This document shows, piece after piece, positions 2,801 to 58,916 of a stretch of DNA of 64,000 bases (the first letter of the stretch is position 1; each line of letters starts with the position of its first letter). The stretch lies in the IMG/VR virus record IMGVR_UViG_3300050821_017570, positions 123,140-187,139 of that record; one strand, 5' to 3'. A model generated the notes under the pieces. It saw only the letters and a list, made by a program, of their open reading frames with translations, made no database searches and was not told the origin of the DNA. A program made the translations under genes and the position numbers. The stretch is from a virus.

Positions 2801-3061
2801 CTAGCGTGCGCGGAATCCGAGTCGCAACACATTGGCCTTGTCGGCGAATGCGCTGTGGAGGGCTGTGAACTCGTCTGCGGTCAGTCCGACAGTCGCTATC
2901 TTGTCGAAGGCACTCCTCAGATTGGTGCGTAGATAGTCGCCACGATCACGGATGCCGCGACGATCGACGCTCGTGCGGGCCCTGGCGGCATTCTGACGGA
3001 CACAGTCGGCGATCCAGGCATCCTGGCGCGCACGGTTGGGATTGATGGCCTGGGTAGGCAT
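2801..3061 (-). CDS. hypothetical protein
   Basis: 86-aa ORF with an AAGGA SD. Confidence 0.65.
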   Translation of the reverse strand: MPTQAINPNRARQDAWIADCVRQNAARARTSVDRRGIRDRGDYLRTNLRSAFDKIATVGLTADEFTALHSAFADKANVLRLGFRAR

Positions 3062-6902: not shown

Positions 6903-6924
6903 CTCCTCGGACTGTGTCCGAATC
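6903..6924 (-). promoter_or_regulatory. hairpin-SD cassette
   Basis: GAT TCGGAC ACA GTCCGA GGAG. Confidence 0.8.
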
Positions 6925-14550: not shown

Positions 14551-14850
14551 TTAGTCGTTGGTGAGTTCGTACGTGCGAGGGTTGATACGGTAGAAGCGCA
14601 TCCAGCCGTGTTGGAGCCCACCGTACTGGTAACAGGACACCATCAGGCGATGAAAGGAGCGGCCGGCTGGGTCGGTGACCCTGAAGACCCCGATCTCGAC
14701 CAGGAAGTGCCCGAACCGCATGCTGGTGCTCTGGCAGCCTGTCTGGTCGAGATCAACCTTCGGGTCACTGATCCATTCGCGATACCGGGTGAGACAAGCG
14801 TCCAAAACCGCCACCTGGGCAGGCAGCTGGTGTTTTACAGGTTTTTCCAT
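14551..14850 (-). CDS. hypothetical protein, paralog of 15377..15673
   Basis: Shares LD...P..xLD...F.RLMV..Y...F.RI...LT. Confidence 0.75.
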   Translation of the reverse strand: MEKPVKHQLPAQVAVLDACLTRYREWISDPKVDLDQTGCQSTSMRFGHFLVEIGVFRVTDPAGRSFHRLMVSCYQYGGLQHGWMRFYRINPRTYELTND

Positions 14851-14875: not shown

Positions 14876-15343
14876 TTAGAACTTGACGCCGAGCAACTCC
14901 TCCACCACCGCGATCACGCCGGTACGGTGGCAGCCGTAGGCGCCCGGATGGGCTTCGAGGTATTCGTGAATCCGACGCGCGTTCGCCGGCATACGGGCCA
15001 GCCGTGCGGCCTCTGCCTTGGCGGTCTCAGGCCGGTAGGCAAACAACGCCTTGACCATTCGGGTCAGAGCCGCCATATCACCCTTACGTGACTCTGGCCA
15101 AACACCATCTGGTGCGGCGTATCCGTAAGCCTCGGCGGCAAACTGACAGATCTTTCTGTCGTCGTCAGTACCGAGTATGGCCTTAATCGGTGCGCGGTTG
15201 TCATAGCCGTTGCAGTCGAGAAAACACTCGGTGACAGTCGACGTGTAGGTATCTGTCTTGTGTCGGAACTGAACCGTATCGCCCCGCTTCAGCTGCCGAC
15301 AGCGGCTGATGTTGGCGGACGTCCATGTGGTTTTTCTGGCCAT
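14876..15343 (-). CDS. hypothetical protein, paralog of 12121..12765
   Basis: AEAYGYAAPDGVWPESRKGDMAALTRMVKALF ... EAHPGAYGC. Confidence 0.75.
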   Translation of the reverse strand: MARKTTWTSANISRCRQLKRGDTVQFRHKTDTYTSTVTECFLDCNGYDNRAPIKAILGTDDDRKICQFAAEAYGYAAPDGVWPESRKGDMAALTRMVKALFAYRPETAKAEAARLARMPANARRIHEYLEAHPGAYGCHRTGVIAVVEELLGVKF

Positions 15344-15376
15344 ATAGTGGTTTCTATGGTTGGTGGTGTGGGAAGA

Positions 15377-15673
15377 TCAGATGGGGGTGAGATCGAAATT
15401 CTTCTCGATCCGAAAGAAGTGGAGACGCAACCGATCGGTTTTGTGCTCGTCACGCAGGTAGAGCGCTACCATCAGACGGTTGAACTGGTGTCCGTTACGG
15501 ACTCCATAGTCGACGAATAACTCGATGATATACTTGCGGCCGTATCCGTACGAGATCCTAACCCCGCGGAGTGCGTCGAGGTTACGTTGGGGCGTCTCGA
15601 TCGCGTGCCTGAAGAGTGTTTCTGCCTGATCGAGGTAGGCAGTCACACAGGGTATACCGGTTTGGTTTGGCAT
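15377..15673 (-). CDS. hypothetical protein, paralog of 14551..14850
   Basis: FNRLMVALY...HFFRIEKNFDLT; preceded by a half cassette ACCGCCAGAGGAG. Confidence 0.75.
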   Translation of the reverse strand: MPNQTGIPCVTAYLDQAETLFRHAIETPQRNLDALRGVRISYGYGRKYIIELFVDYGVRNGHQFNRLMVALYLRDEHKTDRLRLHFFRIEKNFDLTPI

Positions 15674-15690
15674 GTGGGCTCCTCTGGCGG

Positions 15691-15894
15691 TTATATCAGA
15701 ACCACAACGTCGAGCTGATTGGGTTGGATGGAGGCAACTCTGGCTTCCCTGACATCCGCAACCGCTCGTGCTACTTCTAGTGAGCTGAAGCGAGTCGCAT
15801 CGCGGGCCGCATCATGCCAACCACCGTCCGTCACATCATAGAAGCGAAAATGCTGAGAGTCAGGTCCGGGAAAGGGTCGGGCGACAACAAACAT
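15691..15894 (-). CDS. small protein, paralog of 18971..19192
   Basis: FY.VT.G.W/F.....AT.F..L..A.A.A. Confidence 0.7.
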   Translation of the reverse strand: MFVVARPFPGPDSQHFRFYDVTDGGWHDAARDATRFSSLEVARAVADVREARVASIQPNQLDVVVLI

Positions 15895-15899
15895 AGCGT

Positions 15900-15921
15900 C
15901 TCCTCTGACAGTGTCAGAATT
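15900..15921 (-). promoter_or_regulatory. hairpin-SD cassette
   Basis: AAT TCTGAC ACT GTCAGA GGAG. Confidence 0.8.
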
Positions 15922-15929
15922 GTTGATGG

Positions 15930-16466
15930 TTAGAAACAGATTCCGTACCAGATCGAATCCCTAGATCGGGTTGGGACCAACCCAACCAGCTCGCTAGGAA
16001 TGAATCCATAGGAGGGGTAGCAGGTTGGGTCAAATGGCGATGGCGCGCGGAACCTCGGGGTCAGTCGTACCTGAGCCACCATGTCTAAAAACTGATCGAT
16101 CGACATGTTGTCTTTGAGTCGGTTACACCGAAGACAAAGAGGTCGAAGGTTATTGATGTCATTACGACTACCGTAGGGGCATTTCGACCGTGGTACAATA
16201 TGGTCCAGGGTCATCCGCTCCCCACTGTCCGTGTAGAGACCGAAGTGCCAGAAGCCATCCTGCATGGTGGGTCGGAAATGCGTTCCCACCACGCCGCAAC
16301 CATAGCAGGTCTGACCAAGCTTGTGAAACATCCTGAGTTTCTCACGGTTCCTTTGACCGAACCCAAACATCATCCCATCGATCTGCATGGGCGTGGAGAT
16401 CTGTCCCTTTATGAGATCGAAAACAAAGCTGAGCGGATAGCGCACCTCTCCTGATGCGATCAGCAT
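15930..16466 (-). CDS. HNH endonuclease
   Basis: CYGCG ... MTLDHIVPRSK ... NDINNLRPLCLRCNRLKDN; ATG 6 nt after the cassette GGAG. Confidence 0.85.
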   Translation of the reverse strand: MLIASGEVRYPLSFVFDLIKGQISTPMQIDGMMFGFGQRNREKLRMFHKLGQTCYGCGVVGTHFRPTMQDGFWHFGLYTDSGERMTLDHIVPRSKCPYGSRNDINNLRPLCLRCNRLKDNMSIDQFLDMVAQVRLTPRFRAPSPFDPTCYPSYGFIPSELVGLVPTRSRDSIWYGICF

Positions 16467-16472
16467 GGTTAC

Positions 16473-16494
16473 CTCCTCGGGCAGCGCCCGAATC
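16473..16494 (-). promoter_or_regulatory. hairpin-SD cassette
   Basis: GAT TCGGGC GCT GCCCGA GGAG. Confidence 0.8.
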
Positions 16495-16510
16495 GTGGGT
16501 TGAAAGAAAC

Positions 16511-16654
16511 GTAACCTCAATCGCCGACGGGATTCGAACCCGTAGGGAGCACCTACGTCGTGCTATAGTGCTCCGTCGGATTTCGCCATGGGCACGTCCC
16601 ATCTTGGCTAAGCCGCGACTGCATCTGCCGTTTTGCTACAGCGATTGAGGTTAC
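16511..16654 (-). ncRNA. tRNA-Leu(UAA)-like RNA with a 25-nt anticodon insert, long variable arm, extended acceptor stem and no CCA
   Basis: Acceptor ATCGCTG/CGGCGAT; Leu-type D arm GCA-AAACGGCAGA-TGC; T arm ACGGG-TTCGAAT-CCCGT; variable stem GGAGCAC/GTGCTCC; the flanks pair for 9 more bp (GTAACCTCA/TGAGGTTAC). Confidence 0.8.
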
Positions 16655-16667
16655 AGGAAACGCTGAC

Positions 16668-16892
16668 TCAGCGGGTCGCCAGCACGACCGCTTCGGATCC
16701 GATGTAGGCGACTTCGGTCGCACCGGGGAAACAGGTACCCTGATGGGCTGCCTGGTTGATCTCCTGCTGGGAGATCTGGCGCTCGGCCTCACGCTCCGAA
16801 CACCCACGAGCCTTCATCGTGCTGGCGATGAGGGTCCGACGGATCTGCAGGGTGCGGGCGAGACGGACGGCGGCATTGGTCTGGATACGCAT
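16668..16892 (-). CDS. hypothetical protein, 74 aa
   Basis: MRIQTNAAV start 7 nt after the cassette GGAG; an in-frame upstream extension to 17054 also exists. Confidence 0.7.
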   Translation of the reverse strand: MRIQTNAAVRLARTLQIRRTLIASTMKARGCSEREAERQISQQEINQAAHQGTCFPGATEVAYIGSEAVVLATR

Positions 16893-16899
16893 GGGATGA

Positions 16900-16921
16900 C
16901 TCCTCGGGCTATGCCCGAATC
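16900..16921 (-). promoter_or_regulatory. hairpin-SD cassette
   Basis: GAT TCGGGC ATA GCCCGA GGAG. Confidence 0.8.
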
Positions 16922-17108
16922 GGTGGTGGTTGAATGAAACGAAACGAAGAACGCGTGTTTCAAGTCCCGCCGGACCAGCGATCTCCACAGCAACGGTTGC
17001 AAACTGTCGGGGCCGGCAGTGATAGTACGCCGTCACCATTTTGACTGCCACCATACGAGGGAATGGGTCGTATGGTGTCTCTCCTGGGGTTAGCCAGGGA
17101 AAACCGAA

Positions 17109-17396
17109 TCAGAACAGACGAAGGCCACGCAGGATCGAGCGCATCTCGTGCTGGCGGCGCTCCTGCTCCTGACGGATCTGCTTGGCCCGGGCCTTCTCGG
17201 CCCGCTGCATGTTCCGCAGGTTCACCATGGCGGCCACGTGGGCGGCCCTGGCCTCGTAGGCCCGAGCACCCTGCTGGTCGCCCAGCCGACGGCACTCGGC
17301 CGCCTGGCTGATCAGGTCGCGGCGTCCGTTTTCGAGACTCCCCCACATGGTAATGACGTTCTCGGGGGTCAGGGTGGAATGGTCACTGTGACTCAC
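17109..17396 (-). CDS. small coiled-coil protein
   Basis: GTG start 6 nt after the cassette GGAG. Confidence 0.7.
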   Translation of the reverse strand: MSHSDHSTLTPENVITMWGSLENGRRDLISQAAECRRLGDQQGARAYEARAAHVAAMVNLRNMQRAEKARAKQIRQEQERRQHEMRSILRGLRLF

Positions 17397-17402
17397 AAAA
17401 GC

Positions 17403-17424
17403 CTCCTCTGGCTGGGCCAGAATA
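17403..17424 (-). promoter_or_regulatory. hairpin-SD cassette
   Basis: TAT TCTGGC CCA GCCAGA GGAG. Confidence 0.8.
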
Positions 17425-17441
17425 GTGGGGTGATGGACAGC

Positions 17442-17494
17442 AAAAAGAAAAGGATCCCCCACGCGCCTGGCTCGTTAGGCCAGACACGTGGGGG
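17442..17494 (-). terminator. rho-independent terminator (RNA unit 2)
   Basis: 16-bp stem with 2 G-U pairs and loop CUAACGA, then AUCCUUUUCUUUUU. Confidence 0.8.
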
Positions 17495-17633
17495 AAGAAG
17501 AGTACGTTTGGGTTAACGGCCCCTTTCGGGGGAGTTAGTGAAACAGGCTCAGGGGGAGTCCTTGTGGACATTCCTGAACGGATTGATCCTCCTCCTTGGT
17601 AGGAATCGATGGATCGTTCTTTTGGTGGATACC

Positions 17634-17702
17634 AAAAGAAAAAGGTTGCCCACAGCCACATACCCAGCTCCCGCAACAGAGCCAGATATGGGCTGTGGGC
17701 AA
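17634..17702 (-). terminator. terminator-like long hairpin (RNA unit 1)
   Basis: 24-bp stem with 3 G-U pairs and a 1-nt bulge, followed by CCUUUUUCUUUU. Confidence 0.7.
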
Positions 17703-17784
17703 TCTTTCGTAACGGCCTTTCGGGAGTTACGTTGCGGACAGGGGGTAGTCCTTGCGAACATTCCCTGCTTATGAGATTGTGGCG

Positions 17785-18045
17785 CTACTTCGCGCGCTTG
17801 ACCGACCAGAGGCCCTGACGGACCTGATACCAGATGAAACCCGTGGGGAGTTTCGTATCAGGGTTGGTTGGTGCCCAGCAGGGTCCGACGAACCGCTCGA
17901 ACCTACCGGGTGACACTTCGGGTAACTTGACACGGTTCCAGAAACGGTGATTGACCTCGATCCATTGGATCGCCGGATCAGACTCCGCAGGAGACTGACT
18001 GCCGGAATGCGTCTGTTTTGATGATGTAGCCACGTTTGGCGACAT
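17785..18045 (-). CDS. hypothetical protein
   Basis: 86-aa ORF; weak SD. Confidence 0.5.
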   Translation of the reverse strand: MSPNVATSSKQTHSGSQSPAESDPAIQWIEVNHRFWNRVKLPEVSPGRFERFVGPCWAPTNPDTKLPTGFIWYQVRQGLWSVKRAK

Positions 18046-34849: not shown

Positions 34850-35461
34850 TTAAACTCTCTCCTCTGTCATAAGCTTAGCGACAGCTACAGCTTTAGAATC
34901 AGCGCAAGCCACGACCAGCTTACATACTGCAATAAACTCGTCTTCTGTCCGATCAAGTTTATCAAAATTGATTGCTCTGTGCGCCCAGACAAGATTGCTC
35001 CGTTCATACTTCAGCTCTGGGTATCGTGCTTTTGGCATTTTATGTTCAACTGAAGCGATACCTGGTTTGATAGTAATATTAGTGTAATAACACTTATAGC
35101 CCTGCGATTCCATTAAGTCCTTTAAGAACTGCACATTATTGGCTGAACTAGAACCTAAGTGAGTTCGAGCCATAGTAATATACCAACAGTGTTCACAGCG
35201 CTGTTGCCCCGGCAAAGAATTCACATTACAGCCTGCAGTTGTACATAAACCAGCAGCAACACGAGCTTGCCGCTGCTCACGCATATTTTTATGGTATTCT
35301 GCACCTTTTTCTGGGTACTTATTGCGCCAGTGAACCATACGATCTGGGTCCAACTGATGTAATTCACGTGCATAGCGTGCGTAGTATTCTGCCAACGTCT
35401 CACCCGGTTGTTTTGGCGCTATGCCATACTTACTTGCTTTAGGTTTTCTAGTCTTAGCCAT
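34850..35461 (-). CDS. free-standing HNH homing endonuclease
   Basis: CYYT...SVEHKMPK...SNLVWAHRAINFDK; low GC (a sampled 60-nt line is 32%); inserted between tail genes. Confidence 0.8.
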   Translation of the reverse strand: MAKTRKPKASKYGIAPKQPGETLAEYYARYARELHQLDPDRMVHWRNKYPEKGAEYHKNMREQRQARVAAGLCTTAGCNVNSLPGQQRCEHCWYITMARTHLGSSSANNVQFLKDLMESQGYKCYYTNITIKPGIASVEHKMPKARYPELKYERSNLVWAHRAINFDKLDRTEDEFIAVCKLVVACADSKAVAVAKLMTEERV

Positions 35462-57952: not shown

Positions 57953-58028
57953 TGGTCGCGGGATCCGGATTTGAACCGGAACAGTGGCCTTATGAGGGCC
58001 GTGATCTACCAGATTAATCTATCCCGCA
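57953..58028 (-). tRNA. tRNA with CAU anticodon, initiator(fMet)-like, with encoded CCA
   Basis: TGCGGGA TA GATT AATCTGGTA GATC A CGGCC CTCATAA GGCCA CTGT TCCGG TTCAAAT CCGGA TCCCGCG A CCA (76 nt). Confidence 0.9.
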
Positions 58029-58034
58029 ATGCTG

Positions 58035-58154
58035 TTAGACCTTTTTAGGTTTATGAAGGCGAGCCAGCTTGTCTAGGACCGAATCACAGGCCAACACTGG
58101 GCGTTTGGCGGCTGCCGTCTTGAGGAGCTGGTAGAGAACCCGAGTGTGCTTCAT
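58035..58154 (-). CDS. 39-aa mini-protein (not in the ORF track)
   Basis: MKHTRVLYQLLKTAAAKRPVLACDSVLDKLARLHKPKKV*; resembles 54787..54948. Confidence 0.55.
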   Translation of the reverse strand: MKHTRVLYQLLKTAAAKRPVLACDSVLDKLARLHKPKKV

Positions 58155-58163
58155 ACGTGTAGG

Positions 58164-58916
58164 TTAAGCCTCCGTAGCGGCTTGGACAGGCTGGTGAGCT
58201 TCTAGATAGGCTGCGGCCTTACGAAGCAGGGCCGGGGAGTCTGCATAGTGCCCCAGTCCTTGGTTACACGAAAAGCATGCCAGCTTGCGGATAGCACCAG
58301 TCTTATGGTCATGGTCGACACATAGATGTACGTTGCCATAATTACGATCAGACTCGGGCGTTGCTCCGCAGATAGCACATTTATTATCCTGTAATTGACA
58401 GATTTTGTCATACTGAGCAGCGTCGATTTTATATGTAATTTGGCGATGCTTATGACTGATACAGACCTTACAAATCGAATCACGCCCAGACTTTAACTGA
58501 TTATTTACATAAAAATCAGCTATTGGTTTCCACTCAGCGCAATGGGTACACTGAGCTTCACCTTTATCGTTTGTAGGCGGTGGTAGTTGGCCACGTGAAC
58601 GCATTACCACACCGTTCTTCATTAAGAACTCACGTGCCGTCCATACAGAAACTCCGTAGTCGTCTGAAATAGTTTCGAGCGTTTCACCGGTCTTATAACG
58701 CTCGATGACGTGGGCAGGATTCGACTGTATGACTTCTTTCCATAGCGGTGATAGCCGAGCGTCATGTGGTTTACGGGCCTGCACACCGTTTTTTCTCAGA
58801 ATGGTATCAACGGTATTTCTTGATACCCCAGTCTGTTCAGCTGTGGCAACGGTGGACTGCCCACTTTGGTAGATAGTAACGATCTTGGCTGCAATTTCTG
58901 GAGTGACTCGCGGCAT
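58164..58916 (-). CDS. free-standing homing endonuclease: two HTH repeats plus an endonuclease VII-type domain
   Basis: QDNKCAICG..LCVDHDHKTGAIRKLACFSCNQGLGHYADSPALLRKAAAYL; low GC. Confidence 0.85.
   Translation of the reverse strand: MPRVTPEIAAKIVTIYQSGQSTVATAEQTGVSRNTVDTILRKNGVQARKPHDARLSPLWKEVIQSNPAHVIERYKTGETLETISDDYGVSVWTAREFLMKNGVVMRSRGQLPPPTNDKGEAQCTHCAEWKPIADFYVNNQLKSGRDSICKVCISHKHRQITYKIDAAQYDKICQLQDNKCAICGATPESDRNYGNVHLCVDHDHKTGAIRKLACFSCNQGLGHYADSPALLRKAAAYLEAHQPVQAATEA

Follow-up and report, generated by a model that had tools for sequence, protein, structure and literature searches.

Does an HNH nuclease gene that directly follows a structured, tRNA-shaped RNA in a soil phage form a working pair with that RNA, or has it settled at a tRNA-type gene as many phage nucleases do? 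The locus lies in the window analyzed here, a 64-kb stretch of DNA that makes up the last part of a 187-kb IMG/VR phage record with a CheckV completeness of 95%, and in which nearly all genes are on the minus strand. The stretch is also present, with no sequence difference, in two soil metagenome DNA runs (a weak joint, side 20 nt, was disregarded in this comparison), and no RNA run was listed as containing it. The preliminary description of the window had proposed a candidate RNA-nuclease module of the HEARO/IscB type or a similar kind, or an anticodon insert serving as immunity mark, and had also pointed to a likeness with the free-standing homing endonucleases of tRNA clusters, such as T4 SegB. 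As shown below, this interpretation is partly supported: the likeness to SegB is borne out, the module is not.

No related phage, with or without the HNH gene, was present in the collections searched. Blastn with a 3-kb query gave no match among 50,697 phage records, a word-based search of 5.8 billion proteins retrieved the HNH protein itself alone, the same type of search with a 155-aa neighbor returned only the query, and nothing was found when IMG/VR was scanned with the HNH protein and with the upstream ORF.

The HNH gene follows the RNA on the same strand and has its own hairpin-SD cassette

The tRNA-shaped RNA gene, delimited by its fold and an inverted repeat, spans 144 nt (16511..16654, minus). 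Behind it, on the same strand, is an intact ORF of 178 aa (15930..16466, minus; ATG at 16466, stop at 15930) with matches to Pfam HNH and PHROG families, which we call HNH-178. From the end of the RNA stem (16511) to the ATG we measured 44 nt; the short gap described before was thus correct and its length of 45 nt was off by one. A TTG start at 16520 was rejected, as it would overlap the RNA and has no SD, and homologues start at the position equivalent to the ATG. The direct succession of the two genes without a terminator was confirmed from the sequence and by a terminator scan, which found no terminator-like site between them; the nearby hairpins were a weak one of 5 bp upstream of the RNA and one inside the HNH ORF. 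Further away, a strong terminator-like hairpin of 17 bp with a T-run (17495-17455, minus) precedes the RNA by about 0.8 kb, and the transcription unit of both genes probably begins there.

The claim that HNH-178 has a hairpin-SD cassette of its own also proved correct. The cassette (16467..16491, minus, read from the sequence) consists of a 6-3-6 hairpin (16491-16477), GGAGG (16476-16472), and a 5-nt spacer before the ATG, and its hairpin-SD part (16491-16472) is one of ten strict copies in the genome, all between 6.9 and 20 kb of the window and all before minus-strand genes (at 6921, 13123, 13545, 14542, 15918, 16491, 16918, 17421, 19443, and 19970, minus). These copies follow the formula (G/A)ATTC, a covarying 6-3-6 hairpin, and GGAG, 5 to 9 nt before the start codon, and they are confined to one 13-kb block of small ORFan genes, so that the cassette looks like a block-specific translation or processing signal. 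Two ORFans of 98 to 99 aa (14551-14850 and 15377-15673, minus) share the motifs F-x-RLMV-x-x-Y and R-x-x-F-x-RI and look paralogous.

HNH-178 is a separate ORF with its own SD, placed in the intergenic slot between the RNA gene and a 67-aa ORFan (15691..15894, minus), and Rfam detected no group I or II intron there. The possibility of an HNH cassette splitting a tRNA was dismissed, given that no tRNA halves flank the gene and that the cassette of the 67-aa ORFan starts 12 nt past the HNH stop. On the other side of the RNA, the neighbor is probably a 74-aa ORFan (16668..16892, minus) with its cassette at about 16918, after which an ATG comes at about 16892; the longer 128-aa reading (16668-17054) is probably too long. 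This ORFan had no Pfam or PHROG family and no IMG/VR relatives. Inverted repeats (I1, I2, and I9) connect the 3' end of the HNH gene with the T arm and with the following gene; they were treated as chance, the fold of this region being no more stable than those of shuffled sequences (z = -1.3).

HNH-178 is a small protein with HNH domains only

HNH-178 matched Pfam HNH (PF01844) with 39.5 bits (E = 6e-10, cut-off 21.4) and 15 HNH families in PHROG, down to 7e-13, and HNH and HNH_5 were its only Pfam domains. Eight residues were invariant in a 20-member alignment (C54, C57, D88, H89, N106, C111, C114, and N115), and all are kept in HNH-178, where they supply the D-H, the Asn, the terminal Asn/His, and two CxxC zinc pairs. 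The conserved subfamily core covers residues 1 to about 125, followed by a C-terminal tail (residues about 135 to 178) that is unique and modeled with low confidence. Accordingly, the AlphaFold model had a pLDDT of about 90 for residues 1 to 130 and <55 after about residue 140; the predicted fold is a generic beta-beta-alpha-metal fold, and the model contained no further confidently folded domain. Foldseek returned McrA, Cas9 HNH domains, the Gme nicking HNH, and Cap5, all of them weak and generic matches (best E = 0.03), and a sequence search of the PDB gave no match. Pfam, the AlphaFold model, and Foldseek gave no sign of a RuvC or RNA-binding part. Nor was an extra DNA-binding module recognizable by Pfam or AlphaFold; the two other nucleases found beside tRNAs in this phage have, or are given, an HTH.

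The gene had been described as not AT-rich. This is roughly right, with a G+C of 0.525 (GC3 0.63) against 0.479 for the gene of an EndoVII+HTH nuclease in the window, yet the value is slightly below the genome mean of 0.565 and falls at the 10th percentile of equal-sized genome windows. HNH-178 does not have the foreign base composition that is a sign of recent arrival, and the other tRNA-side nucleases lie at 0.46 to 0.48; such a composition is a supportive, non-defining mark of homing endonucleases and is lost in old residents.

Relatives of HNH-178 mostly lack a neighboring tRNA or tRNA-like RNA

A HMMER search of 1.8 billion representative proteins gave 1333 relatives of HNH-178 at E≤1e-3, none of them close (best E = 5e-14), and tblastn against the 50,697 phage records found only gp143 of Delftia phage PhiW-14, with 43% identity over 53 residues. 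The 20 aligned members share an N-terminal region of ~45 aa with an 'RYP' motif, a CxxC, a WH-x-LY strand pair, the D-H, an N, a second CxxC followed by N, and variable C-terminal tails. Judged by these sequences, the subfamily is small and widespread among phages.

We then compared 80 IMG/VR loci, found via the alignment, and 10 metagenome contexts of the best matches. The homologues sit tightly packed among small phage ORFs, with most upstream gaps <100 nt, and in the metagenome contexts the gene usually abuts the ORF before it. ARAGORN found a tRNA within 5 kb of the homologue at 7 of the 80 viral loci and none at the other 73. The preliminary description had suggested examining whether this HNH subfamily co-occurs with tRNA-like RNAs, and it does not: at 79 of the 80 viral loci there was no tRNA directly upstream, the exception with tRNAs in the 400 nt upstream being L027, where the HNH gene is inside a tRNA cluster. 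Counted over 88 homologue loci, a tRNA was directly upstream at one. A search of the 90 homologue loci with R1, a covariance model made from the tRNA-shaped element, also found no relative of the element. As R1 is too specific for this purpose, the absence of tRNA-like RNAs near the homologues rests mainly on ARAGORN and the gap sizes. That homologues mostly lack the RNA is the very result that had been named beforehand as refuting a module, and the module reading is not supported.

A tRNA-Leu(UAA) gene was observed in the vicinity of three HNH relatives, 0.66 kb downstream in L004/L005 (L004:2872-2958), 1.9 kb upstream in L009 (L009:996-1082), and 2.9 kb downstream in L027 (L027:8136-8222), and it was the only tRNA found in two of these loci. 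None of these genes is adjacent to the HNH gene, and the cases may not be independent because two of the tRNAs are alike. The pattern is weak and may reflect chance or shared ancestry of the contigs.

The tRNA-shaped RNA has a sealed acceptor and an aberrant anticodon arm

The RNA element has a cloverleaf core at about 16645-16520. The D arm, which contains GG, is of class II (Leu-like), the T arm is perfect, and the variable arm has 8 bp. The flanks of the core pair as a 16-bp closing stem (16654-16639 with 16526-16511), in which a perfect 14-bp inverted repeat extends the acceptor, and CCA is not encoded. The anticodon arm is irregular, with 45 nt that include a 25-nt hairpin (16608-16584), and does not have the canonical 5-bp stem and 7-nt loop. 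The element folds at -64.9 kcal/mol (z = -4.4), a value equaled by 0 of 200 shuffles. It was missed by default ARAGORN and by Rfam RF00005; ARAGORN in intron mode called Tyr(ata) with a 46-nt 'intron', which is a forced fit, and two other intron-mode calls in the genome were poor cloverleaves. Rfam assigned no family, HEARO included, to positions 15000-18000 at E≤1. An archaeal bulge-helix-bulge intron was rejected as an explanation of the insert, the bulges being 4x4 plus 3 nt and splicing leaving a loop of at least 11 nt when traced by hand, and neither RtcB nor a CCA-adding enzyme was found in the phage genome. We also considered YrlA/Y RNA, the Ro60 partner, and rejected it: the 187-kb genome contains no TROVE match, Rfam found no match, and, in our reading, the topology differs, as both ends of the RNA are at the acceptor side here.

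The element is present in a single copy in the window according to R1, a single-sequence model that is too specific for large searches and missed true tRNA-Leu genes. In viral contigs, neither the 21-mer covering the T arm and acceptor nor the D-loop...T-loop pattern of the element had a match, and no insert-less allele was found in the viral, genome, or metagenome collections. Pattern matches in the genome and metagenome collections were look-alikes, namely ordinary tRNAs, tRNA 3' fragments, a Streptomyces Ro60-adjacent RNA, and an element in contig L105. The latter (L105:651-773, in an AT-rich phage contig) is tRNA-like and missed by ARAGORN; it shares the D loop and has a good T arm, its acceptor is sealed over 11 bp and lacks CCA, and its anticodon region is aberrant. 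Downstream of it are a 71-aa zinc-ribbon ORF and a ThiF/E1-like gene, and not an HNH. In an 8-kb contig binned as Planctomycetota, with 20 tRNA genes (L094:1346-6851), an uncalled tRNA-like stretch at about 2933-3022 has the 21-nt T-arm and acceptor string in common with the element of the window. We claim no homology for these two elements, since their folds are insignificant (z of -1.2 for L105 and -0.15 for L094). In the Streptomyces contig, a structured stretch (L095:2100-2330) that is presumably a YrlA-type Y RNA includes the T-arm and acceptor string as well (20 nt); the N-terminus of the protein encoded directly downstream is Ro60-like by eye. Finally, an Acidobacteria MAG contains a tRNA body of 86 nt (L096:1066-1151, minus) that is class II and Leu-shaped and carries the Gly anticodon GCC. 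The tRNA-shaped RNA is an odder object than HNH-178 and merits a follow-up of its own.

Free-standing nucleases of unrelated types are found at all three tRNA loci of the phage

ARAGORN identified four canonical tRNAs at two places in the phage genome, in addition to the tRNA-like element, and a free-standing nuclease is next to each of these three loci. The first is an AT-rich gene (genome 18042-17467, minus; PHROG HNH 3e-25; G+C 0.46) for a 191-aa HNH endonuclease with an HH...N...H motif, two CxxC pairs, and a C-terminal HTH. It starts 36 nt after tRNA-Gly and ends 3 nt before tRNA-Asn, wedged between tRNA-Gly/tRNA-Gln and tRNA-Asn (genome 17377-18225, L106:578-1426), and its product is unrelated to HNH-178 by BLAST. 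The second is the AT-rich EndoVII+HTH gene of the window (58164-58916, minus; Pfam Endonuclease_7, E = 4e-20; G+C 0.479, GC3 0.43), 135 nt upstream of tRNA-Met (57953-58028, minus; ARAGORN and Rfam) in a locus spanning 57953..58916 (minus). HNH-178 is the third, and the three nucleases are of unrelated types. The remaining free-standing nuclease of the window, a 203-aa EndoVII-like ORF in a low-G+C patch (34850-35461, minus; PHROG endonuclease VII, 7e-10), has no tRNA adjacent, and neither has a weak HNH-like frame at 83 kb of the genome.

With 3 of about 5 nuclease genes in seven tRNA-flanking slots among about 267 genes, a rough hypergeometric P was about 1e-4, and the adjacency of nucleases and tRNAs in this phage is therefore not chance. 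It is not specific to the tRNA-shaped RNA or to HNH-178 either. The earlier comparison with the homing endonucleases of tRNA clusters thus gained support, the neighborhood of nuclease and tRNA recurring three times in one genome.

HNH-178 as a probable homing-type endonuclease beside a tRNA-type gene, and the alternatives

Together, these results favor, with a probability of about 0.62, the reading of HNH-178 as a free-standing HNH DNA endonuclease of the homing type. Its gene would have lodged in the intergenic space just downstream of the tRNA-type gene, a common habit of such nucleases, and would be transcribed along with that gene and its other neighbors on a long minus-strand early or accessory transcript, with translation starting from a hairpin-SD cassette of its own. 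We infer that the enzyme acts on DNA and does not need the RNA. Should it still be homing, its target would be the corresponding locus of related phages without the HNH gene, which it would cut or nick; the gene would then be copied in with flanking DNA, and the tRNA-like gene may be carried along as a by-product.

The near-genome composition and the block-wide cassette suggest that HNH-178 is a long resident, which counts against a recent invasion, and a domesticated role is therefore a real rival. HNH-178 would then be an old housekeeping nuclease that serves the phage, e.g., in breaking down host DNA, in processing intermediates of recombination or replication, or in helping with packaging as HK97 gp74 does, and its position beside the RNA gene would be a historical accident. 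Its G+C and GC3 are near those of its neighbors, unlike the two AT-rich nucleases, nine further genes of the block use the same cassette, it lacks a separate DNA-binding domain, and small phage HNH proteins are similar to the subfamily core, which has about 120 aa. We nevertheless regard this role as unlikely: the large terminase gene (Terminase_6N profile match at genome 121305-121610, plus) is 16 kb away from HNH-178 (genome 139072-139605) and on the opposite strand, so that the gp74-type arrangement is absent, HNH-178 sits amid ORFans with no replication or recombination genes beside it, and a nuclease at every tRNA locus is hard to reconcile with accident. We find it quite improbable that enzyme and RNA gene are coupled in function as in SegB, or that the insert is an immunity mark. 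In the former case, cuts would favor the inheritance or amplification of the tRNA-like gene, which could be useful, e.g., as a decoy against tRNA-cutting defences; in the latter, the nuclease would target the insert-less form of this tRNA gene and the 25-nt anticodon insert would shield the phage's own copy. SegB does drive the inheritance and amplification of adjacent tRNA genes and thereby overcomes the tRNA-cutting Septu (PMC2330249, PMC13096335), the RNA, with its perfect stems and z of -4.4, looks selected and not decaying, and tRNA-Leu(UAA) occurs 0.7 to 2.9 kb from three HNH relatives (L004/L005, L009, and L027). Those three genes are, however, non-adjacent to the HNH gene and two of them are similar, most HNH relatives have no tRNA nearby, the collections yielded no insert-less allele, ARAGORN found no intact tRNA-Leu(UAA) in the phage, and an immunity role leaves the sealed 16-bp stem unexplained.

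Doubtful to the same degree is the idea that the RNA is a functional, non-decoding tRNA mimic, i.e., a decoy or sponge for tRNA-cutting defences or a processing signal. The long-resident HNH might then have been co-opted in the manner of SegB, so that the RNA gene is kept, spread, or amplified, or the host tRNA-processing enzymes that mature the RNA might set the level of the HNH mRNA. Either way, if true, RNA and HNH would work as a unit, though not as an RNA-guided nuclease. A true module of RNA and nuclease, in which the tRNA-like RNA binds, guides, or is processed by the HNH in the way of IscB and HEARO/omega RNA, is highly improbable. The common strand, the 44-nt spacing, the missing terminator, and the strong structure of the RNA would suit it, but the 178-aa protein has the HNH domain only, with no RuvC in Pfam and no further confidently folded domain in the model, neither HEARO nor any other Rfam family matched, the homologues lack any such RNA, and the unrelated 191-aa HNH gene follows an ordinary tRNA-Gly at a similar spacing (36 nt).

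On the plain reading, if correct, the locus is a further example of how nuclease genes accumulate at the tRNA loci of phages. What it adds is small, namely a genome-wide picture in which each of the three tRNA loci of a single soil phage is guarded by a nuclease, the three being unrelated, and in which one of these nucleases looks long resident and wired into the phage's own translation-control cassette. Its practical use is as a caution against taking every structured RNA beside an HNH gene as a guide-RNA system. Only if RNA and enzyme cooperate would the pair have a bearing on how phages protect or spread tRNA-type anti-defence genes.

Comparison with known systems

IscB proteins are about 400 to 500 aa long, with a split RuvC and an HNH, and their RNA is a guide of roughly 200 to 400 nt. 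As in IscB with its HEARO/omega RNA (OMEGA), the gene for an HNH-containing protein adjoins a structured RNA on the same strand here. Unlike IscB, HNH-178 has 178 aa and no RuvC, and its neighbor is a tRNA-shaped RNA with no Rfam match; none of the defining features that we tested was present. HNH genes of the HK97 gp74 type adjoin terminase genes. HNH-178 is likewise a small HNH protein of a phage, and its core is of comparable size, but it is not beside terminase or portal genes, the terminase being 16 kb away.

Closer in setting are the HNH enzymes F-TflI/II/IV of phage T5, which also lie within a tRNA cluster, according to a brief mention in PMC2330249 that cites work from 2004. On that second-hand account, both cases are free-standing HNH-family genes at phage tRNA genes, with expression expected from the tRNA precursor transcript. 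No close sequence relationship to HNH-178 is detectable, however, and the neighbor of HNH-178 is a non-decoding tRNA-shaped RNA and not a tRNA cluster. T4 SegB is likewise a free-standing homing endonuclease in a tRNA cluster; its mRNA is part of the tRNA precursor transcript, a hairpin occludes the SD and so masks the start, and inheritance of the tRNA region is promoted (PMC2330249). A 2026 study found SegB homologues enriched within 1 kb of tRNAs (p = 1.4e-50) and reported that the tRNA gene amplification driven by SegB defeats the tRNA-cutting Septu defence (PMC13096335). SegB differs from HNH-178 in being a GIY-YIG enzyme for which homing and amplification have been demonstrated, whereas HNH-178 has only HNH domains and a putative homing activity. 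The SegB and T5 precedents serve as analogies only, because the neighboring RNA is not a normal tRNA. By this analogy, the case looks like it belongs to the known neighborhood of homing endonucleases and tRNA genes, as in T4 SegB and T5 F-Tfl, and not to a new RNA-plus-nuclease machine.
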